64,000 nt of DNA from Minisyncoccota bacterium (GTDB lineage Bacteria; Patescibacteriota; Minisyncoccia; Phycocordibacterales; UBA1006), in contig JAIPIY010000001.1 in assembly GCA_021734445.1 (NCBI GenBank), forward strand, positions 110,814-174,813, in the 5' to 3' direction. The notes under the pieces are model-generated. The model had not been told where the DNA came from. It saw only the letters and a program-made list of their open reading frames with translations, and made no database searches. This document shows, in pieces, positions 3,765-57,335 of this stretch (position 1 is its first letter; each line of letters begins with the position of its first letter). The translations under genes were made by a program, and so were the position numbers.

Positions 3765-3784
3765 TGGGTGACTATCGGGAATCG
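3765..3784. repeat. 20-nt direct copy of the tRNA-His 3' end (identical to 3960-3979), followed by GTCAC.
   Basis: Exact match tgggtgactatcgggaatcg at both positions. The copy begins at T-loop position C56 of the tRNA. Confidence 0.75.
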
Positions 3785-3833
3785 GTCACTCTTGTGGATT
3801 TTCTTTCAGAAAATCTCACGCCATTGACCTCCA
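3785..3833. repeat. Diverged copy of the conserved tRNA-downstream element (GTCAC ... GATTTTCTGAAAGAAAATC hairpin).
   Basis: Starts with gtcac and contains the AATTTTC/GAAAATT-type hairpin, as in the copies at 7309, 10093, 10355 and 15621. Confidence 0.45.
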
Positions 3834-3900
3834 CTCGCCCGCCAGGCTACGCCTGACTTTGTGCGGGCTCGGTTCGATTCCCTCTCGAAAACTTTGTTTT
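3826..3900 (+). other. Degenerate tRNA-like fragment (T-arm consensus GGTTCGATTCC, no complete cloverleaf).
   Basis: ctcggttcgattccctctcg resembles the tRNA-His T-arm, but I cannot build the stems. Confidence 0.25.
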
Positions 3901-3924
3901 CTCGTAGTCACTTTTAGACATAAC

Positions 3925-3952
3925 AAAAACGCAAGCAAAAGCCTGCGTTTTT
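3925..3952. terminator. Bidirectional hairpin terminator (AAAAACGCAAGC aaaa GCCTGCGTTTTT).
   Basis: 12-bp stem with one G.T mismatch and T-runs on both strands, immediately 3' of tRNA-His. Confidence 0.5.
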
Positions 3953-3961
3953 GTTATGCTG

Positions 3962-4034
3962 GGTGACTATCGGGAATCGAACCCGAATCAGAGGCTCCAC
4001 AAACCCCTGTGTTAACCGTTACACCATAGTCACC
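3962..4034 (-). tRNA. tRNA-His (anticodon GTG) with an encoded G-1.
   Basis: Cloverleaf built by hand: acceptor GTGACTA/TAGTCAC with an extra 5' G pairing discriminator C73, anticodon loop TTGTGGA, T-loop TTCGATT. Confidence 0.85.
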
Positions 4035-5147: not shown

Positions 5148-7235
5148 CTAGAATTCCGTTACCGGCAAAGGTTCCGTTTCAGTTTCTGTTTCTGTTGGCA
5201 CATTTTCATCATTGCTAACAGATTGTTTTAATTCTGGAAATAAAATTTGAACATCTTCTGGAATAACTGAGACAATTTGATTATTAGCCAACGATGTTAA
5301 TTGCAAAGTATGCTGTACAGACATGGTATCAAAATTACTGGATCCTGAAAAACCATATGGGATAAATGTATTCTCTCGTAGAGATACCAGCCCGGTAAGA
5401 TTTTTTACGGTACGCATAAAATCAGTTTCTAATATTGTTACCATTTCACCAAAAGATTGTATCCTCATAGGATATTGATACATGGGAAGATTCATAACTG
5501 AATGTGACACACCAGGATTTTCTAATACGATAGATTGCAACCCATCTGAAACAGTGTTCACAACACCAGCTATTATTTGAACACTGTCTGGTAATGGTGT
5601 TTCTTCAGGTATGGTATGTATTACCGGTAATCGATACCAAATATCTTTTTGTATATTCAAGTGAGTAAGAATTTCTAGTGATGCTTCTCCGAAAGATACA
5701 TAAGTAAATTCTTGATCAAGTATAAATTTCATACGAACACGCTCCATACCTGATTCACGCGGTATCTCCAACGTAATATTTCCTTCTGATTGTATTCCTG
5801 TATCCCCATTACGTAACCACCCATCCACAGATAACAATGATTCTACAGGTTGTATTACAGGAATTTCTGCGTTCAAATCTTCGGTCACTATTTCTTCTCC
5901 TGCTACTTGCCCTGTTGTAACATCTGAAGATTCTGTTATTTCAACCTCTCCTTGTTCATCATTCATAGGAAAAAACAATGACTGAAATATATCTTTTTCT
6001 GATGTAATACTACCCACATAAGAAAACTGCATTCCTGAATTTGCGGGTAGAATATTTTTCAACGAAGCAAAAGCTTGTTCCGCCAAAGGAACTTCAATCA
6101 CAGTAGTTTCTTCAACAGGCGTTTCTTGATTCAAAAAACCAGAAAACAGCCCCTGTGTATATCCATACAATCCAAAACCAAATATTGCCAACACTAATAA
6201 AATAATAACCGTGATACCTATAATTTTTTGTACAGGATTATGTTTTTTGATAATTACACCATCATCATGTATTTCAGTATCAGGCGTAATTGCCATACCT
6301 CCAAAAGCTGGTGAAGCCTGGGGTGGATTAAAGGATGCCCCTGGATTAACCACAGGAGAAACTGGTTCTGATTTTGTATACCATTCTTGTGCAAAATTTT
6401 GTGCTGGTTTAGGTGCTATCACAGGATCTATAGACTTTGGTGCAATGTTTGATTCAGATGTTTTCATTACCGGTACTGATTCTTTTTCTTGAACCATACC
6501 CACAGGAACGATGGTTGGTTCTGGAATATAAGCCGATGATTGCATTGTATTTTGCATAACCGGCTGCTGTGCCAGTGTTTCTTTTACTGCAATAGATGCG
6601 GGTTGTATACGTGGATCAAAAGAATCAACTGGCTGTACAGGAGGCATCACAACAGGAGTTTTTTCTTCAACAACTGATTGCAAAGGTTCTTCTGCTGGCA
6701 TTTCTTTTACTGGATTTTCAAATGAAATACCTGCAATTTCTTCAGTAGGAGAAGACAAAGAAACATCATTCATTTGTTTTTCATTTAAACTATCAGGAGT
6801 ATTTTGTGTAACAGATTCAATCCCCGCTTGTTCCAAAGAATCATTATCCAAATCTAATACAGTAGACATTTCTTCTTGGGTTTCTGGAATATCTTTCTGT
6901 ACCAATGGAGAATGATCTTTTTCAGAAGAAACAGAAACATCTCCACCTAAATCAACATTTACAACGGGTGCTTGTTCAACCTCTTTGGATTCATACGATG
7001 GTTTTTGTGATGAAATAACTTCATCTTTGTTTTCACCTGTTTTTATTACAGATGATTCCATGGACGCCATAGGGACATCTTGTTCTGAAACACCTACTGA
7101 TTTGAATACTTCATCAACATCATCATGTGTCCATCCACCATATGCGAATAAATCTTTACGAATAATATCAAGGTGATGACCTTTTGCGATACGTAATTGA
7201 ATATAATTTACAAGTTCTGGTGTAATCATACACAC
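5148..7235 (-). CDS. Hypothetical single-TM protein with a long low-complexity (E/P/S/V/Q-rich) linker and a C-terminal extracytoplasmic domain.
   Basis: 695-aa ORF with a central hydrophobic segment IIGITVIILLVLAIFGFGLYGY. Confidence 0.45.
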   Translation of the reverse strand: MCMITPELVNYIQLRIAKGHHLDIIRKDLFAYGGWTHDDVDEVFKSVGVSEQDVPMASMESSVIKTGENKDEVISSQKPSYESKEVEQAPVVNVDLGGDVSVSSEKDHSPLVQKDIPETQEEMSTVLDLDNDSLEQAGIESVTQNTPDSLNEKQMNDVSLSSPTEEIAGISFENPVKEMPAEEPLQSVVEEKTPVVMPPVQPVDSFDPRIQPASIAVKETLAQQPVMQNTMQSSAYIPEPTIVPVGMVQEKESVPVMKTSESNIAPKSIDPVIAPKPAQNFAQEWYTKSEPVSPVVNPGASFNPPQASPAFGGMAITPDTEIHDDGVIIKKHNPVQKIIGITVIILLVLAIFGFGLYGYTQGLFSGFLNQETPVEETTVIEVPLAEQAFASLKNILPANSGMQFSYVGSITSEKDIFQSLFFPMNDEQGEVEITESSDVTTGQVAGEEIVTEDLNAEIPVIQPVESLLSVDGWLRNGDTGIQSEGNITLEIPRESGMERVRMKFILDQEFTYVSFGEASLEILTHLNIQKDIWYRLPVIHTIPEETPLPDSVQIIAGVVNTVSDGLQSIVLENPGVSHSVMNLPMYQYPMRIQSFGEMVTILETDFMRTVKNLTGLVSLRENTFIPYGFSGSSNFDTMSVQHTLQLTSLANNQIVSVIPEDVQILFPELKQSVSNDENVPTETETETEPLPVTEF

Positions 7236-7308
7236 AGTGTACCATATTTATTTTTTATTTTTTACAAAAGGTGTGTAAAAGATTTAAAACAACAAAGGAG
7301 AAGGCTTG

Positions 7309-7358
7309 GTCACAAATAATTTTCCTACAGAAAATTTTCGCGACCCCGCCTCGTCTGC
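7309..7358. repeat. Conserved tRNA-downstream element copy (3' of tRNA-Leu), preceded by a degenerate copy of the tRNA-Leu 3' end (about 7291-7308).
   Basis: gtcacaaataattttcctacagaaaattttcgcgaccccgcctcg, near-identical to the copy at 10355. Anchored to ORF 7306. Confidence 0.6.
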
Positions 7359-7391
7359 CTTGGGCATAACTCCGACCTTCAAGATCCTCAC

Positions 7392-7413
7392 GCGAGCAAA
7401 GCAGTTTGCTCGC
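7392..7413. terminator. Hairpin (GCGAGCAAA gcag TTTGCTCGC) 3' of tRNA-Leu.
   Basis: 9-bp perfect stem. Confidence 0.4.
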
Positions 7414-7438
7414 TTCCTGCGCACAGATGTTCACATTG

Positions 7439-7522
7439 TGCGCAGGAGAGGACTTGAACCTCCACGCCCTTGCGGGCACATCCACCTCAAGGATGCTTGT
7501 CTACCAGTTTCAACACCTGCGC
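7439..7522 (-). tRNA. tRNA-Leu (anticodon GAG), long variable arm.
   Basis: Acceptor GCGCAGG/CCTGCGC, anticodon stem CATCC/GGATG, loop TTGAGGT, variable arm TGCCCGCAAGGGCG, T-loop TTCAAGT. Coordinates anchored via ORF 7306. Confidence 0.85.
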
Positions 7523-9923: not shown

Positions 9924-10039
9924 GGGTGTACAGTTTTTATTCTTTGATATTATACTTTAAAATAATAATAAAGTCAATACCATGCATATTATCTTATTTA
10001 AAACTTATATTTAGAGAAAAACATCATCATGGCAAAAAA

Positions 10040-10059
10040 GCGACCACCTTCGTGGCCGC
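10040..10059. terminator. Hairpin GCGACCAC cttc GTGGCCGC followed by a T-run.
   Basis: 8-bp stem with one mismatch, between the DksA-like gene and the tRNA cluster. Confidence 0.35.
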
Positions 10060-10067
10060 CTTCTTTG

Positions 10068-10092
10068 TTTTATGTGCGCGATGAGGGACTTG
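10068..10092. repeat. 25-nt direct copy of the tRNA-Val 3' end plus 4 trailer nt (identical to 10238-10262), followed by GTCAC.
   Basis: Exact identity confirmed through two overlapping ORF-track frames (10072 and 10215). The copy starts at T-loop C56. Confidence 0.85.
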
Positions 10093-10140
10093 GTCACGAA
10101 TATTTTGCTTTACAAAATTTCTCGACCCCGACTCGGCGAC
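10093..10140. repeat. Conserved tRNA-downstream element copy (3' of tRNA-Val).
   Basis: gtcacgaatattttgctttacaaaatttctcgaccccgactcggcgac. Confidence 0.6.
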
Positions 10141-10244
10141 AATTTTGTAAGACAAAATCGTAAACCGCCTCCGTCTTTCAAGTCCCAATCTCTTGGTAAA
10201 ATACAAAAGCCCGAATGCTTTGCATCCGGACCTTGTATTTTATG

Positions 10245-10317
10245 TGCGCGATGAGGGACTTGAACCCCCGACCTTCTCGGTGTAAACGAGCTGCTCTACC
10301 AACTGAGCTAATCGCGC
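10245..10317 (-). tRNA. tRNA-Val (anticodon TAC).
   Basis: Acceptor GCGCGAT/ATCGCGC, D-arm GCTC AGTTGGTA GAGC, anticodon loop TTTACAC, T-loop TTCAAGT. Confidence 0.85.
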
Positions 10318-10354
10318 TATGTTTTTATTATAAAGAAAAATCTTTACTCCGTGT

Positions 10355-10399
10355 GTCACAAATAATTTTCCTAGCGAAAATTTTCGCGACCCCGACTCG
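10355..10399. repeat. Conserved tRNA-downstream element copy (3' of tRNA-Arg-TCT; the flanking tRNA-end copy is eroded).
   Basis: gtcacaaataattttcctagcgaaaattttcgcgaccccgactcg. Confidence 0.6.
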
Positions 10400-10447
10400 C
10401 CTGTGTTCCAAGTATTCACACTACGGCTCCGTCCGCACACTTCGCTC

Positions 10448-10469
10448 GAATGTAAAGAAATTTACATTC
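10448..10469. terminator. Hairpin GAATGTAAA gaaa TTTACATTC, 3' of tRNA-Arg.
   Basis: 9-bp perfect stem. Confidence 0.4.
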
Positions 10470-10481
10470 TTTACGCTCGTG

Positions 10482-10553
10482 TGCCCCCGCTAGGAATCGA
10501 ACCTAGATTAACGGCTTAGAAGTCCGCAGTTCTATCCATTGAACTACAGGGGC
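10482..10553 (-). tRNA. tRNA-Arg (anticodon TCT).
   Basis: Acceptor GCCCCTG/CGGGGGC, D-arm GTTC AATGGATA GAAC, anticodon loop CTTCTAA (one A.G mismatch at the stem base), T-loop TTCGATT. Confidence 0.7.
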
Positions 10554-10621
10554 ATCTTACCCTATCAGACCGTATACACGGTACCTAAAACGAAGGACCA
10601 ACAAAGTATAGCATATTTCGT

Positions 10622-10933
10622 TTATTGGTCAATATATTCGTTTGCCACCGGACGCATATCATTACGCTCTTCGAGAATTTCCAAAACTTTGTCCAAATTA
10701 TCTTGATGCAACACAGGAACGATCTGATCTGAAATAATTTCTTCTTCTACATGGATACGATCAGATACCACATAATAACGATATACAATTGCTGTAATCC
10801 CGAGGATTATAACGAAGCCAATAAAAAATCCTACTACAGACCATTGCCAAACAATAGTTGGTCGAAATCGTGAACGAATTTTTTTAATCGTTTCCTCAAG
10901 AGTGTTTATTGCTGTATCTGTTTTTATTATCAT
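10622..10933 (-). CDS. Small single-TM protein, first gene downstream of pilO (possible pilus assembly accessory).
   Basis: 103 aa with one TM (WSVVGFFIGFVIILGITAIVY). Confidence 0.4.
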   Translation of the reverse strand: MIIKTDTAINTLEETIKKIRSRFRPTIVWQWSVVGFFIGFVIILGITAIVYRYYVVSDRIHVEEEIISDQIVPVLHQDNLDKVLEILEERNDMRPVANEYIDQ

Positions 10934-15430: not shown

Positions 15431-15517
15431 GGAGGAGTGGCAGAGAGGTCGATTGCACTTGTCTTGAAAACAAGAGTCTGGGGAACCGGACCGTGAGTTC
15501 GAATCTCACCTCCTCCG
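15431..15517 (+). tRNA. tRNA-Ser (anticodon TGA), type II.
   Basis: Acceptor GGAGGAG/CTCCTCC+G, anticodon stem CTTGT/ACAAG, loop CTTGAAA, long variable arm, T-loop TTCGAAT. Anchored via ORF 15412. Confidence 0.85.
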
Positions 15518-15620
15518 CAACGACCCGAAAGGGTGATGTCTATTACCCGATTGGGTTGTCGGCGCGTGAGAATGTGAGATTCGAAAGACGGAGGCGCGAA
15601 GCCGATTCGCAGAATCGTTG

Positions 15621-15664
15621 CCGAGTCAGGGTCGTGAAATTTTGCGTAGCAAAATATTCCTGAC
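15621..15664. repeat. Conserved tRNA-downstream element copy (3' of tRNA-Ser), ending in CTGAC.
   Basis: ccgagtcagggtcgtgaaattttgcgtagcaaaatattcctgac. Confidence 0.6.
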
Positions 15665-15685
15665 CGAATCTCACCTCCTCCGCAA
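15665..15685. repeat. 21-nt direct copy of the tRNA-Ser 3' end (identical to 15500-15520), beginning at T-loop C56.
   Basis: Exact identity verified through the ORF 15412 frame. Confidence 0.85.
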
Positions 15686-33187: not shown

Positions 33188-33259
33188 GCTCTCGTCGTTC
33201 AATGGATAGGACATGACTTTGCGGAAGTTAAAATATAGGTTCGATTCCTATCGAGAGCA
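33188..33259 (+). tRNA. tRNA-Arg, anticodon read as GCG (unusual for bacteria).
   Basis: Acceptor GCTCTCG/CGAGAGC+A, D-arm GTTC/GGAC, anticodon stem TGACT/AGTTA, loop TTGCGGA, T-loop TTCGATT. Anchored via ORF 33199. Confidence 0.65.
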
Positions 33260-42772: not shown

Positions 42773-45700
42773 CTATTCATCAATACTGTTATTAGATTCT
42801 GCACCACTATCCTGATCTGCATCACCGGATTCCGAAGAAGAATCTGATTCGGTATTCTGTTCAGGTGATGATTCTGTTGGCGCATCATCTTGCGTCGACT
42901 GGTCTTCTGATGGGAATTCGTCAATAGTTGCATCATTAGTGTCTCCATCAGCTTCTTCTTCAATAATTAGTTCAGATTCAGAAGAATCGTTATTCTCTTC
43001 TTCTCCTTCGTCATCAGGCAACTCATCAATAATTAGTTCATCTGTATCGCCAGAATCATTTTGATTATTATTATTTGATGTATAGATAACCTGTTTTGTA
43101 GATCCATTCATCACTGATTCTAATTCGTCCCCTGTTACGCAAAAATCAGTTCCATCAGATTTTGCAACACAAATTTCTTCTGTATAAATTTCTTTTGCAA
43201 AGAATTTTTGTATCCCATTCCCCGCATCAGCAAACCAATTTCGTATACGTGAAAGAAGTGTTTCATCTGAAAGAGTTTGAATATCCATGAGTTTCAAATC
43301 CATTTCTTTAATTGCTTGTGTAATAACTGCAGTCATCTGAGCATAGTACACTGCTTTGTATCCATCTTCTCTTTCAATTACTAATTCAGGGAAATATTGT
43401 TCTAAATCTTGAGCAATGAACCCGATACGAGTTTTATTTGATTGATCACTGTTGAGAGTATATGAAACTGTTCTTACATTCAAAAGTTTAGAAAGAACAC
43501 CTGAAGATAGGTCGTTAACATTTGATTTTAATTGTTCGTCAGATGCAATAGAAGCAGAATCATACCAAGCTAAAACACCTGAACCATTTGTACCTAACAC
43601 ATAATCCATAGCACCATCTGTTGTTGGCCAATACCAATTTGTAGTACTTGATCCATCATTGTTTGTTAATATCAAACCACTCTCTTGCGCCCTAATACCA
43701 GCAGAACTATTGAGTGAAGGATCTGACCAACTTAATTGTGCATAATTACTAGCAGTAACAATAGCAGAATCTGTATTTGCACCAGCATAACTCATTGATG
43801 CAAAACCACTGTACACACCAATATTCGAAGAAAGACCACCGGGTTCGTCATATCTTAATATGGAACCACTTGAGTCTAAGAGTAACCGCCGAATATCTCC
43901 GCCTCCAAAATCAACAATACCAGAAATTGTATCATTTAAATTATTAACACTAAAACGAGTATCATCTCCAGTATAAAAAATACTATCATCATTATTCCAT
44001 GTGAAAGAATTACTTTGTGCGAGTACTCCGCCATCACCTACAAATAAAATGCTATTTGCATTAGCACTCCCAATTGTATCACCAATAGAGAGAGACCCTC
44101 CTCCACCCGGCACCCAAGTCATTATTCCTTCATCAGTAGAAGAAAGGAAATATCCACTTGCTACTGGATATGCAGTTGGCAATGTATATGTATCTCCTTG
44201 GAATTTCCATTTTGTAATTACATCAGGAATTGCAAATTCGTTTGAAACCGCTATTGCACCTGCACCAAGAGCAATTGCGTCTGAAGCAAACCATTCACCT
44301 ATGTCTGCACCTGCTCCTATTATTGTATTACCAGAACCAGAAACAAGACCAGCTCCTGCCGAATATCCATATGCAGTATTCGAACTTCCAATAGTATTAT
44401 TATATCCAGAATTATAACCAGTAAACACGTTATTAGAGCCTTCTGTATTAAAGAAACCAGCAGAAGGGCCAGAAAAGATATTATTAGAACCTTCTGTGTT
44501 TGCATAGCCAGAATGAGATCCAGAGAAGATGTTACTAGAACCAGTGGTATTTGCATTACCGGCGTTAATACCAGAAAAAATGTTCTCTGTACCTGTAGTG
44601 TTTGAATAACCCGCGTTAGTACCTAAAAAGATGTTATTAGCACTAGATGTATTTGAATGCCCAGCATTATATCCTATAAATATATTATAGTCTCCCCCGG
44701 CATTACTGTATCCCGCTTCGTAACCTTGAAAAATATTGTGACTACCTGTTGTATTCGCAGTTCCTGTATAATTTCCCAAAAAAATATTATGTACTCCCGT
44801 ATCATTTAATACCCCTGCGCCAGTTCCTACAAAAAAGTTACCGACTCCGGTCATAGTCTCATTACCAGATCGATTGTCGAATAAGTTCGTACCGAGAAGT
44901 GTAAATAAACTACCCCCACCTCCCGCTGGAGTTTCCCATGTCAAATTTCCAGAACCATCATTCGTCAGAACTTCTCCTGCACCACCCTGAGCATCTGGCA
45001 TGATCCAGTTGACACCTCGCATATTGAACTGAGTATAAGCTGGTCCAATTAAAAATTGATTTGATGCAGTATTGGTTGCTTGATATCCTAAACCGATACT
45101 GTTCGAATATCCTCCGGTTGAAGTATCATCACCAATTAATATTGAAGTGCCGATACTAGTATTATCAACAGAATCATTCAGCCCTGCATTTTCACCAATA
45201 AAAATACTATTGGCAGCATTTACTGCAGAATTACCTGCATCATATCCAATGAAAATTGACCGAAATGCAGAATACGCGGAATTACCCGCATTATATCCAA
45301 TGAAATTTGACAAATGAGCCCCTTCGGCATATTGGCCTGAACCAGCTCCTAGAAAATTAGAACCATACGCATTTTCTGCCTGATATCCTGCATATTGCCC
45401 GAGGAAGTTTGAACTTGAAGCATTCGTTGCACTGTTCCCTGCATAGACACCTAAAAAGTTTGAGTTGTTTGCGTTAGTTGCATTTTGACCAGATTGTTGT
45501 CCAAAGAAATTGGAATAAGTAGCATCAGTTGCGCCAAGACCAGCAGACCTACCAAAGAAGTTTGAGAATGACGCATTTGTTGCATCACGACCTGTTTGAT
45601 ATCCCAAAAAAACTGAATCTTGTGCGTCAGAATTTAATCCTGCTTCTAATTCTCCACCTGAAAACAAACCAAATATATTAACAAGTGAAATTGCAGATGA

Positions 45701-46741
45701 TCCTCCACCAGAAACTGCCTCCCAAGTTAAATTCCCTGAACCATCATTAGTTAAAACTGTATTAGATCCACCTTGAGTATCTGTCCAATCATAGCTCACA
45801 CCATTAATATAATGTAAATTACCAACTCCAAGATTACCTGGAACACCAACAACTCCTAATGGGTATTGACCGTAAGAGCCTAAGACAGAAAAAAGTGGAC
45901 TATCTCCATTTCCAGAATCAAGAATATTAAAAGCACTAGCATTACTTGCCCAGAAATTCATTTGCCCTCCCGAGTTAATCTGAAACAAATTACCTCCGCT
46001 AGAATTTTGTATCAATAATGGATCTACATCTTCATATGTATCAGACGTTCCTGGAACTTCTGGTGTCCCTTCGGCAAATGTTAACATATAGAAATTATCT
46101 TCGGGTTGTCCTCCAGCATCTATAACAATAGGTGAGTGTCCTGTACCGCTTGCAAAGGTAACAAAGATACCAGAAAAATCAAGATCGACGAGAGGCATGG
46201 GAACACCCGGAGTAATTTCTATCACATCATCAGGAATATCTAATCCACCACAGTTTCCTCCATAGGCAATACGATCATTAGCAAACCCATTATCTGGTGC
46301 TGTATCCCAAATACCGAAAATTAACATACAACCTTCTGGTCCATCGTATTCTCCTGAGAATGTCGCGTCTTGAAGCCCCGCACCAGTATAGTCGACACTG
46401 GCAACAGAACCTGGTGTGCCCGGAATCGTAGGAGTCCCCGGTACAAGAACCTGACCTGTTTGAATGTGTAATTGCGCCAATGGGGAATCTATACCAATAC
46501 CAACCAACCCTTCATCAAAAAATATATCAGTATCATTTGATGCAAAAGACCAAAGAGAACCACCGTCACCAATATCAATAATACAATCTGGATCAGCTGG
46601 TCCTGTACATAAATTATCTCCTACGGGATCTAAAGTTTCTCCTGGTGTAATAGCTGAAACAACAATACCTCCGTAGAGAGTAAGAGCAATGAGAAGAAAG
46701 AAAAAAATGGCGTGTTTTTTTAATGTTGTGAGTAGTTGCAT
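42773..46741 (-). CDS. Giant secreted repeat protein, paralog 1 (~1320 aa). Signal peptide; Cys-containing N-terminal motif AITPGETLDP; two blocks of 17-residue Gly/Asn-rich tandem repeats; C-terminal peptidase S74 intramolecular-chaperone autoprocessing domain; polyacidic tail.
   Basis: S74 signature ASDEQLKSNV ... IGFIAQDLEQYFPELV ... AVYYAQMTAV encoded near 43300-43546. Repeats such as SNFLGVYAGNSATNASS x7 and NNIFLGTNAGYSNTTGT x9. Start set at MQLLTTLKK (46741); the alternative ATG is at 46759. Confidence 0.8.
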   Translation of the reverse strand: MQLLTTLKKHAIFFFLLIALTLYGGIVVSAITPGETLDPVGDNLCTGPADPDCIIDIGDGGSLWSFASNDTDIFFDEGLVGIGIDSPLAQLHIQTGQVLVPGTPTIPGTPGSVASVDYTGAGLQDATFSGEYDGPEGCMLIFGIWDTAPDNGFANDRIAYGGNCGGLDIPDDVIEITPGVPMPLVDLDFSGIFVTFASGTGHSPIVIDAGGQPEDNFYMLTFAEGTPEVPGTSDTYEDVDPLLIQNSSGGNLFQINSGGQMNFWASNASAFNILDSGNGDSPLFSVLGSYGQYPLGVVGVPGNLGVGNLHYINGVSYDWTDTQGGSNTVLTNDGSGNLTWEAVSGGGSSAISLVNIFGLFSGGELEAGLNSDAQDSVFLGYQTGRDATNASFSNFFGRSAGLGATDATYSNFFGQQSGQNATNANNSNFLGVYAGNSATNASSSNFLGQYAGYQAENAYGSNFLGAGSGQYAEGAHLSNFIGYNAGNSAYSAFRSIFIGYDAGNSAVNAANSIFIGENAGLNDSVDNTSIGTSILIGDDTSTGGYSNSIGLGYQATNTASNQFLIGPAYTQFNMRGVNWIMPDAQGGAGEVLTNDGSGNLTWETPAGGGGSLFTLLGTNLFDNRSGNETMTGVGNFFVGTGAGVLNDTGVHNIFLGNYTGTANTTGSHNIFQGYEAGYSNAGGDYNIFIGYNAGHSNTSSANNIFLGTNAGYSNTTGTENIFSGINAGNANTTGSSNIFSGSHSGYANTEGSNNIFSGPSAGFFNTEGSNNVFTGYNSGYNNTIGSSNTAYGYSAGAGLVSGSGNTIIGAGADIGEWFASDAIALGAGAIAVSNEFAIPDVITKWKFQGDTYTLPTAYPVASGYFLSSTDEGIMTWVPGGGGSLSIGDTIGSANANSILFVGDGGVLAQSNSFTWNNDDSIFYTGDDTRFSVNNLNDTISGIVDFGGGDIRRLLLDSSGSILRYDEPGGLSSNIGVYSGFASMSYAGANTDSAIVTASNYAQLSWSDPSLNSSAGIRAQESGLILTNNDGSSTTNWYWPTTDGAMDYVLGTNGSGVLAWYDSASIASDEQLKSNVNDLSSGVLSKLLNVRTVSYTLNSDQSNKTRIGFIAQDLEQYFPELVIEREDGYKAVYYAQMTAVITQAIKEMDLKLMDIQTLSDETLLSRIRNWFADAGNGIQKFFAKEIYTEEICVAKSDGTDFCVTGDELESVMNGSTKQVIYTSNNNNQNDSGDTDELIIDELPDDEGEEENNDSSESELIIEEEADGDTNDATIDEFPSEDQSTQDDAPTESSPEQNTESDSSSESGDADQDSGAESNNSIDE
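44290..44820 (-). repeat. Coding tandem repeat: 51-bp units encoding the 17-aa xNIFxGxxAGxxNTxGS repeats (about 9 units).
   Basis: Periodicity read from the translation. Coordinates are approximate. Confidence 0.6.
45150..45600 (-). repeat. Coding tandem repeat: 51-bp units encoding the 17-aa xSNFxGxxAGxxATNAx repeats (about 7 units).
   Basis: Verified by back-translating 45160-45300 to IGYNAGNSAYSAFRSIFIGYDAGNSAVNAANSIFIGENAG. Confidence 0.6.
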
Positions 46742-46767
46742 ATGGTTGTAGTATAGCATGTTACTAT

Positions 46768-46801
46768 AAAAAGAAAATCCCCTATAGGGGATTTTCTTTT
46801 T
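46768..46801. terminator. Perfect hairpin AAAAAGAAAATCCCC tata GGGGATTTTCTTTTT between the rplB stop and the giant gene 1 start.
   Basis: 15-bp stem. It ends 9 nt before ATG 46759. Confidence 0.6.
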
Positions 46802-46805
46802 ATAT

Positions 46806-47642
46806 TTATCGTTTACCAGTTTTTCTTCGAGAAACAATATTTTTATTTGAGTATTTTTTAGGAGTTCTTGTTTTAACACCGTATGCTAATTTCCCATGAC
46901 GAGTTTTTGGACCACGACGTAAACCGATACCTTGACGTCCTTCTCCACCTCCGTGCGGGTGATCAACAGGGTTCATCGCAGATCCACGCACAGTAGGTCG
47001 AATACCTAACCATCGTGAACGACCAGCTTTTCCAAGATTTCGTAATTTATGTGATTCATTTGAAACTTCTCCGATAGATGCATATGATTTATCAGATACT
47101 TTTCGAATTTCAGTTGATGGCATTTTCAAGTGAGCGTACCCACGATCATGTGCAACTACCTGAGCATAGGTTCCAGCAGAACGAGCTAATTTCGAACCTC
47201 CTTGCGGTTTTAATTCAATGTTATATACAAAAGTACCTACAGAGATTTTTTCCAACGGAAGACGGTTACCTACGGTTACCGGAGCATCTTCGCTAACGAT
47301 AAATGTATCACCTACTTTCATTTTTTGTGGAATAATAACATACCGTCGTTCTCCATCGTGGTAACATACCAAAGCGATAAATGATGAACGGTTGGGATCA
47401 TATTCAACAGTTTCTATTTTTGCAGGAATATTGTGTTTATTGTACAAGAAATCAATTTCTCGATATTTTCTTTTGTGTCCACCCCCTTTGTGTGGGGTAG
47501 TAATGCGTCCTTGATTATTTCTTCCCACATGTCGTTTACCACCTTTTGTCAAAGCTTTGTGTGGTGTACGTGTTGTTAATTCGCTGTAACTTACAGTAAC
47601 TAATTGTCGACGTGATGGGGTTGTTGGTTTATATTTTTTCAT
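46806..47642 (-). CDS. rplB: 50S ribosomal protein L2.
   Basis: 278 aa, GRNNQGRITTPHKGGGHKRKYR ... SAMNPVDHPHGGGEGR. Confidence 0.95.
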   Translation of the reverse strand: MKKYKPTTPSRRQLVTVSYSELTTRTPHKALTKGGKRHVGRNNQGRITTPHKGGGHKRKYREIDFLYNKHNIPAKIETVEYDPNRSSFIALVCYHDGERRYVIIPQKMKVGDTFIVSEDAPVTVGNRLPLEKISVGTFVYNIELKPQGGSKLARSAGTYAQVVAHDRGYAHLKMPSTEIRKVSDKSYASIGEVSNESHKLRNLGKAGRSRWLGIRPTVRGSAMNPVDHPHGGGEGRQGIGLRRGPKTRHGKLAYGVKTRTPKKYSNKNIVSRRKTGKR

Positions 47643-54369: not shown

Positions 54370-56787
54370 TTATTCAATACTGTCCGATTGCTCTTCTGGT
54401 GTTTCAACTGTTTCTTCTGGATCTTCGGATTCAATTTCATCTACTATTTCAGATTGTTCAACCTCATCTTCTGATTCTAAAACTTCTAGGATTTCAATTG
54501 TTGATTCTTCTTCGATCAGAGGAATATCTTCATCTGATATAGATTCTTCGTCTACAACAACATTTTCATCATTAATTATCACATCTCCTTCTTCCAAATC
54601 ATCAGAATCAGTAATAACACCTGTATGAATTAATCGTTTTAACATTTCAGCTTCTTCTTTGTCAAAACACACATTCTCTACACACAACTCTTCGGTCGTA
54701 ATCTTCTTTGCAAAGATGTTTTGAATACCGTTACCTACGTCAGCAAGGAAATCTTTAGCTAAAGTAGTTAATAATGCTAATGAAAATCCACCAGATGCAA
54801 TGGTTTGAGATTCTAAGATGGAAACCTTGAGATCTAACTCTCTAACCGCCTCTACTAATATTGGAGCCATTTGTGCATAATACACGGATTTAAATCCTTC
54901 TTCATTGGTTGCAACCAGCTCTGGGAAATATTGTTCAAGATTTTGAGCAAGAAAACCAATTTGCGGATGTGTTTCGGGTTTGTCATTCCAGTTATAGGTA
55001 ACGGTACGGAGCTGAAGAACTTTATCAAGTATGTTTGACATATCTACAATATTTGTTTTTAATCTTTCGTCAGATGAACATGCAATACCAGTGCCTGTAG
55101 TAATAATACAGTTAGTAGTAGCTGCTTGAATACGTACAGATTCAATTGAACCTGTAGCCAGGGTTGAACCAATCATGAATTGATTTGTAGCAGTGTTGGT
55201 TGCCCCTTTACCAATGGCAATGGAGTTAGAAAATCCTCCAGTAGAGGTTTCATCTCCAATGAGAATAGATGTGAAGTTTGCTGTTGAATTATTTAGTGCA
55301 AGATCTCCTGCTTGAGATCCCGCACTATTTCCAATGAAAATTGAGTTATTTGAATTAGCAGAACCAGCAACACCCACACTAAAAAAACCTGCTTTGGAAC
55401 CAATAAAAGTTGAGTTATAAGCATTAGTCGCACCTTGACCAGCTGAATTACCAAAGAAATTAGAATGCGCAGCATTAGTTGCGCTATTTCCAGCTGTGCG
55501 ACCCAAAAAATTAGAATTACTAGCATTGGTTGCACTATCACCTGCTGAGGCACCAAGGAAGTTTGAACCATTCGCGTTTGAAGCGTTTATACCTGCATTT
55601 GCACCGAAGAAGTTTGAAGAAGAAGCACTTGTTGCACTAGCTCCAGCACCAACTCCAAAGAAGTTTGATTGATATGCGTTTGTTGCATCTTGTCCTGCAC
55701 CATTACCTAGGAAGTTTGACTCAGTAGCATCTACTGCATTTTGACCAGCACCACCTCCCAAGAAGTTTACTGAGTAAACATTTGTTGCACCATTACCAGC
55801 ATTATCTCCTAAGATTATATTTCCACCACCACCTATTGTTCTTCCTTGCCCTGTACCAGAAAGTCCTGATGAATATAGAGTGTCTCCAGATGCACCAATC
55901 GTAATTGATGAAGACCCCCCAGAAACAGTAGCCCAAGAAAGTTGACCATTGCCATCTGTTTGTAATACCTGACCAAGAGCTCCATCAGCTATAGGAAAAG
56001 TATACCAATCTCCACTGAAATCAAAAGTAATACCACTATCATCCAAAGATATACTTTGGGCTCCCGTAATAGTATCTACATATAATTGTGCATATTCACT
56101 GGAAAGAGATAATTCTGATCTATCATTAGCGCCTGTATCTTCATATCTAAAAGAAGCCTCTGTTGCATCAAGTTCCATTGTTGATTCTTTATTGATTACC
56201 AGGTCAGAAAATTGAGATGCAAAACTTGTATCAGTGACATTAAATCCTGTTCGGATATTTCCTCCATCACTCAAAAGAAAGAGTGAAGCTCTTTGAGGAG
56301 CAAATAACATTGTAGAGCTTTCACCACTAGCACCTCCATAACCTACAATTGTCACATGCTCACCAAGACCAAATGCCGTCCCATCACCAACCGCAACAAA
56401 ATTTGATTCGTCAGTAGTCTCATCAACATGAACCATATTAGCACCAGGAATTGTACCATTTGCACTAATTCCCATAATAGTTAAAAAATCAGGAGCCACA
56501 CTATCAGACACCATCATAATTTCACCATTATCAAAATCATAAGTAAAACCTTCAGCAGTTGAAAGTTCACCTGCATTATTTAAAAATAAAACACTATTTG
56601 GATCTAATCCATCATACGGATTAATAGCACATCCAGAATCAGTTGGTCCAGAACACACATTGTTGTGTGTATTTACCGGATCCAATGTTTCCCCTGGCGC
56701 AATAGCAAACACAGCAAATGCAGTAAATGCGATAGAAGAGATGAGTGCACCCAGTATAGACACCTTGTAGTGTGTAGTATAAGACAT
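54370..56787 (-). CDS. Giant secreted repeat protein, paralog 2 (~805 aa). Signal peptide; AIAPGETLDP/CSGPTDSGC N-terminal motif; 17-aa xSNFxGxxAGxxATNAx repeats; peptidase S74 intramolecular-chaperone domain (CSSDERLKTNI); polyacidic tail.
   Basis: S74 signature SSDERLKTNIVDMSNILDKVLQLRTVTYNW ... IGFLAQNLEQYFPELV ... SVYYAQMAP encoded around 55053-55080. Start set at MSYTTHYK (56787); the alternative ATG is at 56805. Confidence 0.8.
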   Translation of the reverse strand: MSYTTHYKVSILGALISSIAFTAFAVFAIAPGETLDPVNTHNNVCSGPTDSGCAINPYDGLDPNSVLFLNNAGELSTAEGFTYDFDNGEIMMVSDSVAPDFLTIMGISANGTIPGANMVHVDETTDESNFVAVGDGTAFGLGEHVTIVGYGGASGESSTMLFAPQRASLFLLSDGGNIRTGFNVTDTSFASQFSDLVINKESTMELDATEASFRYEDTGANDRSELSLSSEYAQLYVDTITGAQSISLDDSGITFDFSGDWYTFPIADGALGQVLQTDGNGQLSWATVSGGSSSITIGASGDTLYSSGLSGTGQGRTIGGGGNIILGDNAGNGATNVYSVNFLGGGAGQNAVDATESNFLGNGAGQDATNAYQSNFFGVGAGASATSASSSNFFGANAGINASNANGSNFLGASAGDSATNASNSNFLGRTAGNSATNAAHSNFFGNSAGQGATNAYNSTFIGSKAGFFSVGVAGSANSNNSIFIGNSAGSQAGDLALNNSTANFTSILIGDETSTGGFSNSIAIGKGATNTATNQFMIGSTLATGSIESVRIQAATTNCIITTGTGIACSSDERLKTNIVDMSNILDKVLQLRTVTYNWNDKPETHPQIGFLAQNLEQYFPELVATNEEGFKSVYYAQMAPILVEAVRELDLKVSILESQTIASGGFSLALLTTLAKDFLADVGNGIQNIFAKKITTEELCVENVCFDKEEAEMLKRLIHTGVITDSDDLEEGDVIINDENVVVDEESISDEDIPLIEEESTIEILEVLESEDEVEQSEIVDEIESEDPEETVETPEEQSDSIE
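55370..55800 (-). repeat. Coding tandem repeat: 51-bp units encoding the 17-aa SNF/GAG/ATNA repeats (about 8 units).
   Basis: Back-translation of 55381-55440 gives GQGATNAYNSTFIGSKAGFF. Confidence 0.6.
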
Positions 56788-56816
56788 ATGAGAATAGTAT
56801 AGCATGATATCCAAAT

Positions 56817-56845
56817 AAAAAAATCCCCACTCGGGGGATTTTTTT
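56817..56845. terminator. Perfect hairpin AAAAAAATCCCC actcg GGGGATTTTTTT between the rpsG stop and the giant gene 2 start.
   Basis: 12-bp stem; same GGGGAT core as the hairpin at 46768. Confidence 0.6.
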
Positions 56846-56864
56846 ATTTGGAGTATTAATTTTC

Positions 56865-57335
56865 TTACCAAGCAAAGTGTGCAAATGCTTTGTTTGCTTC
56901 TGCCATTTTCAAAGTGTTTTCTTTTCGTTTTACTGCTTCACCTTCGTTTTTACTAGCCAAGATAATTTCATCAGACAATTTGATGTACATTGGTTGCCCT
57001 TTTTTCTTTCGAGCAGCTTCCATGATCCATCGCATAGCCAAAGCCAATCGTCGTTCTGGTCGAACTTCTCGTGGAACTTGGTAGTTTGCACCCCCAACAC
57101 GTCGTGATCGAACTTCTAGTGCAGGGCCTGCATTTTTAAAAGCCAAATCAACAACTTCTAGTGGGTTTGGGTTTTCAGATTCTTTTTTGATTCGTTCCAA
57201 AGCTTGATAGACAACAGCACGAGCTGTTTCTTTTCGCCCATCCAACATAACATAGTTAATAAGACGACCTATTTTCTGAGAATTATAGATTGAATCTGGC
57301 CCTGGAATATTTCGATTTTTTACTGGTCTTCGCAT
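56865..57335 (-). CDS. rpsG: 30S ribosomal protein S7.
   Basis: MRRPVKNRNIPGPDSIYNSQKIGRLINYVMLDGRKETARAVVYQALERI. Confidence 0.9.
   Translation of the reverse strand: MRRPVKNRNIPGPDSIYNSQKIGRLINYVMLDGRKETARAVVYQALERIKKESENPNPLEVVDLAFKNAGPALEVRSRRVGGANYQVPREVRPERRLALAMRWIMEAARKKKGQPMYIKLSDEIILASKNEGEAVKRKENTLKMAEANKAFAHFAW

Follow-up and report, generated by a model that had tools for sequence, protein, structure and literature searches.

Five of the six tRNA genes in a 64,000-nt stretch of the genome of a Minisyncoccota bacterium (contig JAIPIY010000001.1 of assembly GCA_021734445.1; the whole stretch is hereafter called the window) are followed by a small module of 100-190 nt that contains no open reading frame (ORF), the copy behind tRNA-His being divergent. 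We class it as a structured insertion module of small size that lies at tRNA 3' ends, and it lacks defining features of integrative islands, miniature inverted-repeat transposable elements, REP/REPIN elements, omega-RNAs and group I introns. Every module combines a conserved folded core with a frame derived from the host gene, for which we use the following terms: X designates the 3'-terminal part of the host gene, anti-X is an internal complement of X, and X' is a downstream direct copy of X. Just 5' of its conserved part, every module contains the complement of the beginning of the duplicated segment. This host-derived antisense/sense frame appears to have no described counterpart in the databases and literature searched.

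Modules of the window

The original prediction, made from the letters of the sequence, placed two minus-strand tRNAs, two hairpins, two copies of a conserved element and a 25-nt duplicate of the tRNA-Val end within a single short region. Both tRNA genes were called by ARAGORN and Rfam, and both hairpins were found with RNAfold at the positions listed in Table 1. The duplicate of the tRNA-Val end was recovered in full: the sequence CAAGTCCCTCATCGCGCACATAAAA, read from 10092 to 10068, is identical to the stretch from 10262 to 10238 at 25/25 positions, which run from T-loop C56 through A73 and into 7 nt of the trailer. By our estimate, chance alone would produce about 2e-6 exact 25-mer repeats in a 64-kb sequence. 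The two ORFs that overlap this region (10072-10254 and 10215-10493, plus strand) both contain MCAMRDL, a peptide obtained when the tRNA-Val end and its copy are translated in antisense. As had been suspected, they are spurious and represent antisense artefacts over tRNA genes.

The two copies of the conserved element, initially delimited at 10093-10140 and 10355-10399, are real, but these limits cover only the 3' two-thirds of a larger conserved unit. This unit is described by R1, a covariance model built from 35 cores, which scores 79.5 bits at 10081-10188 (Val module) and 69.7 bits at 10343-10446 (Arg module), both on the minus strand. A copy of the tRNA-Arg trailer had also been proposed; it is present in the alignment but it is imperfect, as ACACGGAGTAAAGA (10354 to 10341) matches ACACGAGCGTAAAGA at the tRNA-Arg end at 13/16 positions with one gap. 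GUGACA, with which the Arg module ends, and a TATAAT box located 9 nt before tRNA-Val stand at a -35/-10-like spacing (10321-10360, minus strand), and the last nucleotides of this module may also serve as part of the promoter of tRNA-Val.

Table 1. Features of the tRNA-Arg/tRNA-Val locus and location of the other modules of the window (positions relative to the first letter of the window).
Feature	Positions	Strand	Basis
Putative promoter TTGACC, 16 nt, TATACT, 5' of tRNA-Arg	10605-10632	minus	Consensus scan
tRNA-Arg(TCT) gene, no encoded CCA	10481-10553	minus	ARAGORN and Rfam (10481/10482-10553); Rfam tRNA, 64.6 bits
X, Arg module: GCACAC, final tRNA bases and initial trailer bases; partner of anti-X	10479-10484	minus	Sequence, fold
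H1 hairpin, Arg module, immediately 3' of the tRNA	10441-10478	minus	RNAfold
Anti-X, Arg module: GUGUGC, complement of the tRNA-Arg end	10435-10440	minus	Sequence, fold
Core, Arg module: P2 (GAC GGAG ... CGAG UC) and P3 (GGUCGCGAAAAUUUU ... AAAAUUAUUUGUGAC)	10355-10433	minus	R1 and consensus structure
X', Arg module: ACACGGAGTAAAGA, imperfect copy of the tRNA-Arg end and trailer	10341-10354	minus	Alignment
tRNA-Val(TAC) gene, no encoded CCA	10244-10317	minus	ARAGORN and Rfam (10244/10245-10317); Rfam tRNA, 68.6 bits
X, Val module: tRNA-Val C56 to A73 and 7 nt of trailer	10238-10262	minus	Alignment, 25/25
H1 hairpin, Val module; terminator-like, GC stem followed by a U-rich run	10197-10242	minus	RNAfold; terminator scan (site 10234-10206)
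Anti-X, Val module: GGGACUUG, complement of CAAGUCCC in both X and X'	10179-10186	minus	Sequence; P1 helix in folds
Core, Val module: P2 and P3 of the three-way junction	10093-10175	minus	R1
X', Val module: repeats the 3' part of tRNA-Val and the trailer exactly over 25 nt	10068-10092	minus	Sequence, alignment
Putative canonical intrinsic terminator after the Val module: GGCGGCCACGAAGGUGGUCGC UUUUUU	10032-10060	minus	Sequence
Module after tRNA-Leu(GAG) (7438-7522): CUGC-loop H1, core, decayed X'	7297-7437	minus	R1 (7297-7389, 69.4 bits); sequence
Module after tRNA-Ser(TGA) (15431-15518): anti-X 15574-15583, core, X' 15665-15685	15519-15685	plus	R1 (15574-15676, 76.9 bits); repeat; sequence
Divergent module after tRNA-His (3961-4033): terminator-like H1, full antisense copy, variant core, X'	3765-3960	minus	Sequence, fold

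The suggestion that tRNA, hairpin, conserved element and tRNA-end copy form a recurring module was borne out at the other tRNAs of the window. R1 matches four of the window modules (Val, Arg, Leu and Ser) with scores of 69-80 bits and gives no match for the His module. The X' of the tRNA-Ser module is a 21/21 copy of the tRNA end and its anti-X reads GUGAGAUUCG. In the His module, X' (3765-3784) is a 20/20 copy of the tRNA end, and the antisense copy consists of GUGACUA ... GGGAAUCG, of which the upstream GUGACUA pairs with the acceptor 3' strand. The sole tRNA of the window without a module is tRNA-Arg(GCG) at 33188, where a convergent ORF ends 6 nt past the tRNA. The internal antisense copy of the duplicated segment, the extent of the family across the candidate phyla radiation (CPR), the sites located after transfer-messenger RNA (tmRNA) and protein genes, and the presence/absence of modules described below go beyond the original prediction.

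Structure and distribution of the module family

The core is a three-way junction of about 85 nt composed of three helices, P1, P2 and P3. The base of P2 is GCC/GGC or GAC/GUC, and this helix further comprises an internal loop (conserved 5'-GNA-3'/5'-GA-3'), a covarying helix of 3-4 bp and a variable hairpin that is often AGCA-capped. P3 is AU-rich (GGUCGNGAAA(A)UUUU ... AAAAU(U)AUUYSUGAC) and contains an invariant G.U pair, and P1 is the closing helix in which anti-X, just 5' of the core, pairs with X', just 3' of it. Pairing statistics were computed on an alignment of 59 sequences obtained with R1. Standard pairs were found in 91.5% of the cells, as opposed to 38-51% when partners were slid, and changes on both sides were observed for 22 of the 27 pairs. 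One G.U pair is kept in 58/59 sequences and another pair alternates between GC and GU, which indicates that the folded strand is the tRNA-sense strand. The nucleotides of the junction and of the internal loop are highly conserved, and orthologous tRNA-Lys modules show compensatory changes in P2 across genomes. Modules and their own frames are also specifically associated: an exact X' copy of at least 15 nt was found in 19% of own-module pairings and in 0.04% of cross pairings, and a P1 helix of at least 7 bp in 58% versus 10%.

Two classes of modules were distinguished, which recur according to tRNA type. In class A, X extends from T-loop C56 to the end of the tRNA; this layout was found at the genes of tRNA-Val, Ser, His, Gly, Tyr, Asp, Ala, Met, Cys and Leu and at tmRNA. 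The X' of class A is a full-length exact copy in many loci and measures 8-12 nt in others, with a constant 5' boundary. In class B (Arg, Lys, Glu and Ile), the final 4-9 bases of the tRNA and the trailer constitute the 5' strand of a long, near-perfect H1 hairpin, often with a CUGC loop and with A- and U-tracts, whose 3' strand terminates in anti-X. The core motif of class B starts uniformly 81-83 nt past the tRNA in many different CPR genomes, and its X' is a short copy that starts with CACA and continues into the trailer. tRNA-Val presented class A in every locus examined (more than a dozen) and the tRNA-Arg modules seen belong to class B. The Arg copy of the window had originally been viewed as a complete module that had suffered a deletion. 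Because the Arg layout recurs at tRNA-Arg, Lys, Glu and Ile genes across CPR genomes, it represents a conserved class and not a deleted module.

Some modules contain a full-length antisense copy (UGUGCGCGAUGAGGGACUUG), and other cores were found within the same X/anti-X/X' frame among contigs with an identical tRNA-Val 3' half. One of them, which we named family 2, has a core (...CGAAAGGUGUAC) that ends with GGUGUAC; next, immediately before X', comes a hairpin of 4 bp whose loop reads UGUAAG. Family 2 was found at loci L146, L148/L242, L147, L164, L126, L155, L229 and L105, and after tRNA-Leu(TAA) at L040. Because the AA linker and the GAG/CGA loop of P2 are common to both, family 2 looks like a distant structural relative of the main core. 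Six loci with a tRNA-Val gene that encodes CCA (L169, L189, L205, L214, L191 and L228) present a full reverse complement of the T-arm (GAGGGACUUGAACCC) past the tRNA and a terminator, followed by other sequence; in two of them (L205 and L214), a long direct repeat of the tRNA end plus terminator lies past the reverse complement. This arrangement differs from that of the module, and the source genomes may not belong to the CPR.

The core motif was searched in one genome per species, which yielded at least 120 loci. Among the matches listed, those that are low in GC and located outside genes come from Patescibacteria only and include the lineages Saccharibacteria, Nomurabacteria, Paceibacterota, Moranii-, Zambryskii-, Adler-, Niyogi- and Kaiserbacteria, and Minisyncoccia. 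The high-GC matches and the few low-GC intragenic ones were discarded as chance matches, several of them falling in Walker-A coding sequence. R1 identified 59 copies in 64 low-GC genome loci, again among the matches listed, and 41 further copies in metagenome and viral loci. Scanning viral contigs for the motif gave 10 loci, R1 matched none of them convincingly, and a phage origin was therefore dropped. At the gathering score, Rfam 15 matched only the tRNAs in the whole window, and nothing relevant was found at permissive cut-offs (10000-10600 at E<=10, the His module at E<=1 and a family-2 module at E<=1). The element was also not described in the literature searched on CPR tRNA-linked motifs, small RNAs and repeats.

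Modules are not restricted to tRNA genes. The core and its frame were found after a tmRNA gene (L039, ~5540-5900, plus strand), where anti-X is GUGGGAAUUG and X' is a 16-nt exact copy of the tmRNA 3' end. Two modules directly follow protein genes on the minus strand, one similar to rpsI (L070, 1144-1245) and one similar to rplL (L078, 3219-3330); in both, H1 includes the stop codon and X' reproduces the end of the ORF imperfectly. Stand-alone modules were found in two CPR lineages (L008, ~150-320, and L090, ~290-436, both on the plus strand) and these are preceded by a conserved, promoter-like sequence, AAAAAGTTCGCGCAAA .. TA(G/T)AAT. These stand-alone genes suggest that the RNA may act on its own as well. 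Tandem doublets were observed at L118, L102 and L008, and the two units of the L118 doublet each have their own X'. Across the module-bearing loci, 35/82 tRNAs carry modules.

At two loci (L021, 166-356, and L043, 2015-2244, plus strand), a module is located 5' of tRNA-Ser(GGA), after a copy of the 5' part of a class-II tRNA (acceptor and D-arm), and an anticodon-arm-like segment (CUACCUUGGAAAGG) lies on its 3' side. These loci may represent a third insertion position, in the anticodon region. A gene for a LAGLIDADG-type endonuclease was observed about 150 nt or less from a cluster of three modules (L102, 6572-7216, minus strand); a link between such endonucleases and modules was not retained, as this is a single case without a pattern.

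Whether modules are polymorphic had been raised by the original prediction, and presence/absence was found at orthologous sites at the level of comparisons between genomes. Metagenomes were scanned with the exact 3' half of tRNA-Val, which gave 101 loci with enough downstream sequence. A signal of anti-X and/or X' was detected in 42 of these loci and none in the other 59. Four tRNA-Val loci share a downstream rluA-like gene: two are empty (L139 and L140) and two are filled (L160 and L195). The filled and empty alleles differ by a 114-nt unit that is bounded by an 18-19-nt direct repeat (CAAGTCCCTCATCGCGCAC), and in the filled alleles X' is followed by the sequence that adjoins the tRNA in the empty ones. 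Pairs of tRNA-Val and tRNA-Arg(TCT) likewise occur both with and without an intervening module. As judged from these alleles, the module and one copy of X form a discrete insertion/deletion unit that leaves the tRNA intact and a second copy of its end downstream. Insertion and loss fit these sites alike, since recombination between X and X' would yield exactly the empty allele.

The most similar core of nearly every module was found in another genome, often at the same tRNA type. Close groups of cores include those of tRNA-Lys, which are 84-93% identical to each other, and a Ser/Tyr/tmRNA group; the mutual identity of the four window copies is 60-80%. The comparison of core similarities gave no sign of recent bursts within a genome. 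Modules thus look old and appear to have been inherited with their tRNA genes, with occasional loss. Synteny based on the DksA-like neighbor was uninformative on the module: a single relative (89% identical) was found, with a different upstream gene.

Possible function and origin

We propose that the module is a cis-acting RNA domain of the 3' trailer that works by strand exchange and that was installed by an insertion regenerating the tRNA end, an interpretation to which we assign a probability of about 0.4. The module would be transcribed with the tRNA as part of its 3' trailer. Anti-X could pair with the 3' part of the real tRNA, which would extend H1 and block the formation of the acceptor and T-arm; alternatively, it could pair with the decoy X', which would close the junction and free the tRNA. 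Through these mutually exclusive pairings, junction folding would be coupled to what happens to the upstream RNA, namely its own folding, its 3'-end processing or its stability; the junction itself might bind a protein or a ligand, or self-cleave. In the predicted minimum-free-energy folds of the Val and His transcripts, the tRNA is completed by X' and anti-X holds the first copy of the 3' end. The Ser transcript is predicted to form a normal tRNA with the junction closed on X', and in the Arg transcript anti-X is predicted to pair with the final bases of the tRNA. For the modules whose X' has diverged, anti-X pairs better with the host segment than with X' in 21/25 cases (mean of -13.8 vs. 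-10.3 kcal/mol).

Several observations weigh against this proposal. The preference of anti-X for the host segment is also expected from neutral decay of X'. H1 is terminator-like in 20/54 modules (~37%, vs. 4/54 random controls), so that the core is possibly transcribed by read-through only. Simple co-transcription is further challenged by the scarcity of terminator-like sites past the core, which are found at a distance of at most 110 nt in only 13/54 modules (vs. 4/54 random controls); for the same reason, we dropped the general rule that modules end transcription units and are then followed by a terminator. The stand-alone copies with their own promoter-like sequence (L008 and L090) lack an upstream gene that could be their target. 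Some bases of the exact 25/25 and 21/21 copies are without a pairing partner, which a DNA-level event explains more easily than RNA-level selection. The apparent covariation of P1 was rejected as independent proof of RNA-level selection, since both strands of P1 derive from host sequence; the evidence for selection on the fold comes from P2 and P3. Hairpins containing G.T pairs in single-stranded DNA may provide an alternative folded form. Finally, the module is dispensable, as 59/101 tRNA-Val loci gave no signal of the frame and modules are carried by only 35/82 tRNAs. It is possible, although we consider it doubtful, that the modules constitute a new class of RNA device in Patescibacteria, a junction sensor or ribozyme of the 3' trailer that decides, through strand exchange with the decoy, on the folding and maturation of the upstream tRNA or mRNA end, or else that they are a "pseudo-intron", a mobile RNA element that invades the T-loop of tRNA genes and needs no splicing because it brings a replacement 3' end and a terminator.

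The main alternative is a selfish, non-autonomous mobile element, whose folded RNA or single-stranded DNA would serve its own propagation and whose replacement 3' end would keep the tRNA alive; we regard this as possible but on balance unlikely. The element would be a pseudo-intron that needs no splicing and that enters at the T-loop or at the 3' end, X and X' being its footprint and anti-X its means of target recognition. Entry might proceed through the single crossover of a small circle in the tRNA 3' segment, or through template switching at the T-loop sequence common to all tRNAs. Filled and empty orthologous sites with exact boundaries and an 18-19-nt direct repeat speak for mobility, as do the tandem doublets in which each unit has its own X' (L118), the several different cores within the same frame, and the diversity of sites, which include tRNA T-loops, tRNA 3' ends, tmRNA and the ends of protein genes. 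Mobility would also be consistent with an X' whose 5' boundary is fixed and whose 3' extent is variable, and with exact copies that take in unpaired bases and trailer. T-loops are alike across tRNAs and an 8-nt guide would need 1-2 changes to switch tRNA type. However, genomes do not contain near-identical copies, the nearest relatives are in other genomes and often at the same tRNA type, and no recent movement was seen. The modules examined neither contain nor adjoin a gene for a transposase, integrase or reverse transcriptase, the genes for transposases related to those of repetitive extragenic palindromic (REP) sequences that were found (RAYT-like genes) are flanked by a different palindrome, and viral contigs yielded no convincing copies. 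Compensatory changes have maintained the structure of orthologous modules through long divergence, a pattern that would be absent from a dead element, and empty sites are obtainable by simple loss between direct repeats.

The module positions correspond to the T-loop, the tRNA gene 3' end and tmRNA, which Williams reportedly described in 2002 as classic sublocations of integrase crossover, and like attL/attR repeats at tRNA and tmRNA genes, the module shows a T-loop/3'-end site, a regenerated tRNA and a direct repeat of ~18-25 nt downstream. The module could accordingly be pictured as the remnant, of about 100 nt, of a shrunken integrase island, with X and X' as the attL/attR identity blocks, and the direct repeats of tRNA 3' segments that flank the insert (Val 25/25, Ser 21/21, His 20/20; 18-19 nt at filled sites) agree with such a history. 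We nevertheless consider it highly improbable. The insert is a conserved structured unit with covariation rather than random remnant DNA, and the same core is found at more than 15 tRNA types, which independent deletions would not leave. Unlike integrative elements, the module has an insert of ~100-190 nt and not of kilobase size, no integrase and an internal antisense copy of the repeat. No integrase gene was found among the scanned neighboring proteins of the window, which include L19, a pseudouridine synthase, PilM/PilO and a DksA-like protein. The GUGAC just 5' of X' is unlike the T-stem 5' strand expected of an attP core arm, and the repeats of class B are as short as 4 nt.

We attach a similarly low probability to a scaffold-plus-guide RNA resembling the omega-RNAs of TnpB/IscB or the RNAs of TIGR-Tas (Nop-domain) systems, in which the scaffold would be provided by the core and the guide, aimed at the tRNA or its gene, by X' or anti-X. 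As in omega-RNAs, the conserved scaffold is folded and directly adjoins a variable segment matching the neighboring DNA, here a locus-specific stretch of 18-25 nt identical to the adjacent tRNA 3' part; the stand-alone copies with their own promoter-like sequence and the Nop-domain Tas proteins reported in CPR bacteria (PMC12045711) fit this picture as well. However, there was no omega-RNA-type Rfam match at E<=10, and no TnpB-, IscB- or Tas-like gene was found among the scanned proteins of the window or beside the modules inspected; in particular, no tnpB/iscB ORF adjoins any of the five window modules (the ORFs of the window were scanned in part only). The supposed guides are as short as 4-8 nt in class B, X' has decayed in many copies that kept their core, and, unlike the variable segment of omega-RNAs, the guide is predicted to be paired internally with anti-X. 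A TIGR-Tas guide array was rejected for the additional reason that such arrays consist of tandem 36-nt units (PMC12045711), and the modules are dispersed and measure 100 nt.

HDV-like (hepatitis delta virus-like) "theta" ribozymes have been reported 3' of phage tRNAs, and a self-cleaving ribozyme that trims the tRNA 3' trailer would by analogy explain the position of the module directly 3' of tRNAs without encoded CCA, the highly conserved nucleotides of its junction and internal loop, and a size typical of small ribozymes. Such an activity appears very unlikely. No Rfam match to HDV-like, hammerhead, twister, pistol or hatchet ribozymes was obtained at E<=10, the topology is by inspection unlike the hammerhead or HDV consensus, a long H1 intervenes between the tRNA end and the core, and the element is also found after protein genes and as stand-alone copies. 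When the core was compared by eye with the consensus of hammerhead, HDV-like, kink-turn/box C/D and H/ACA structures, no convincing fit emerged.

Other known systems share some of the properties of the module. Patescibacteria possess group I tRNA introns, which are inserted at position 35/36 (PMC13011429); these were rejected because the tRNAs next to modules are intact (ARAGORN, Rfam), because there was no Intron_gpI match at E<=10 and because the position of insertion is different. Miniature inverted-repeat transposable elements were also rejected, since the terminal inverted segments of the module (anti-X and X') are locus-specific and match the host, the duplication varies from 4 to 25 nt instead of being fixed, and genomes lack many near-identical copies, those of the window being 60-80% identical. 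REP/REPIN and Correia (NEMIS) elements are likewise small, non-coding and hairpin-rich, lie in sense orientation 3' of genes and vary in presence; they are co-transcribed in known cases, and RNase III can cut Correia. They differ by their uniform, element-encoded terminal repeats, their short and fixed target duplications and their many near-identical copies per genome, whereas the module has terminal inverted segments copied from the host, a duplication of 4-25 nt and old, diverged copies. IS200-like Y1 (RAYT-like) transposase genes are present in CPR contigs (L040, 98-757, minus strand; L105, 7313-8002, plus strand), and the corresponding motif is absent from the window. A REP/REPIN system with RAYT was rejected for the module, as the gene of L040 is flanked on both sides by TACAAAGGTCGAACCTTTGTA palindromes and not by the module; these palindromes are a separate REP-like family that is unrelated to it.

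The 3' external transcribed spacers of tRNA operons and the dicistronic tRNA-snoRNA genes also place a structured or functional RNA in the 3' trailer of a tRNA, from which it is freed by processing enzymes, but they lack the tRNA-end duplication, the anti-tRNA segment and a three-way junction common to many loci. Three-way-junction riboswitches resemble the module in their conserved junction or internal loop and in a P1 strand with a mutually exclusive alternative partner; the module differs in being located 3' of its candidate target, and the alternative pairing involves a tRNA or ORF end and not a terminator or a ribosome-binding site.

Patescibacteria genomes are among the smallest and densest of bacteria, and this dense genome nonetheless spends 100-190 nt behind five of its six window tRNAs on an element that recurs across the whole radiation. 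CPR organisms lack many protein regulators. If the RNA does act on the maturation or stability of tRNAs, as proposed above, it would constitute a new, RNA-only layer of control over the output of stable RNAs. If the module is instead a mobile element, it would represent a new way to inhabit an essential gene without splicing, through regeneration of the gene end, and it would also explain the tRNA-end duplications that annotation pipelines render as spurious ORFs. The R1 covariance model provides a concrete RNA family for the few CPR species that are culturable and genetically tractable.

Other features of the window

The genes of the window include those of type IV pilus proteins, L19 and an RluA-type synthase. 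In two very large minus-strand ORFs (42773-46879, 1368 aa; 54370-56871, 833 aa), a 51-nt (17-aa) unit is reiterated in long arrays at 45213-45616 and 55298-55821 (families D1/D2); these ORFs probably encode repetitive surface proteins. A 61-nt stretch located 5' of both genes (46739-46799 and 56785-56845, 72% identity) consists of CATATG..TAGTATAGCATG.., followed by a AAAATCCCC...GGGGATTTT hairpin, and looks like a promoter/terminator cassette common to the two repeat-protein genes.

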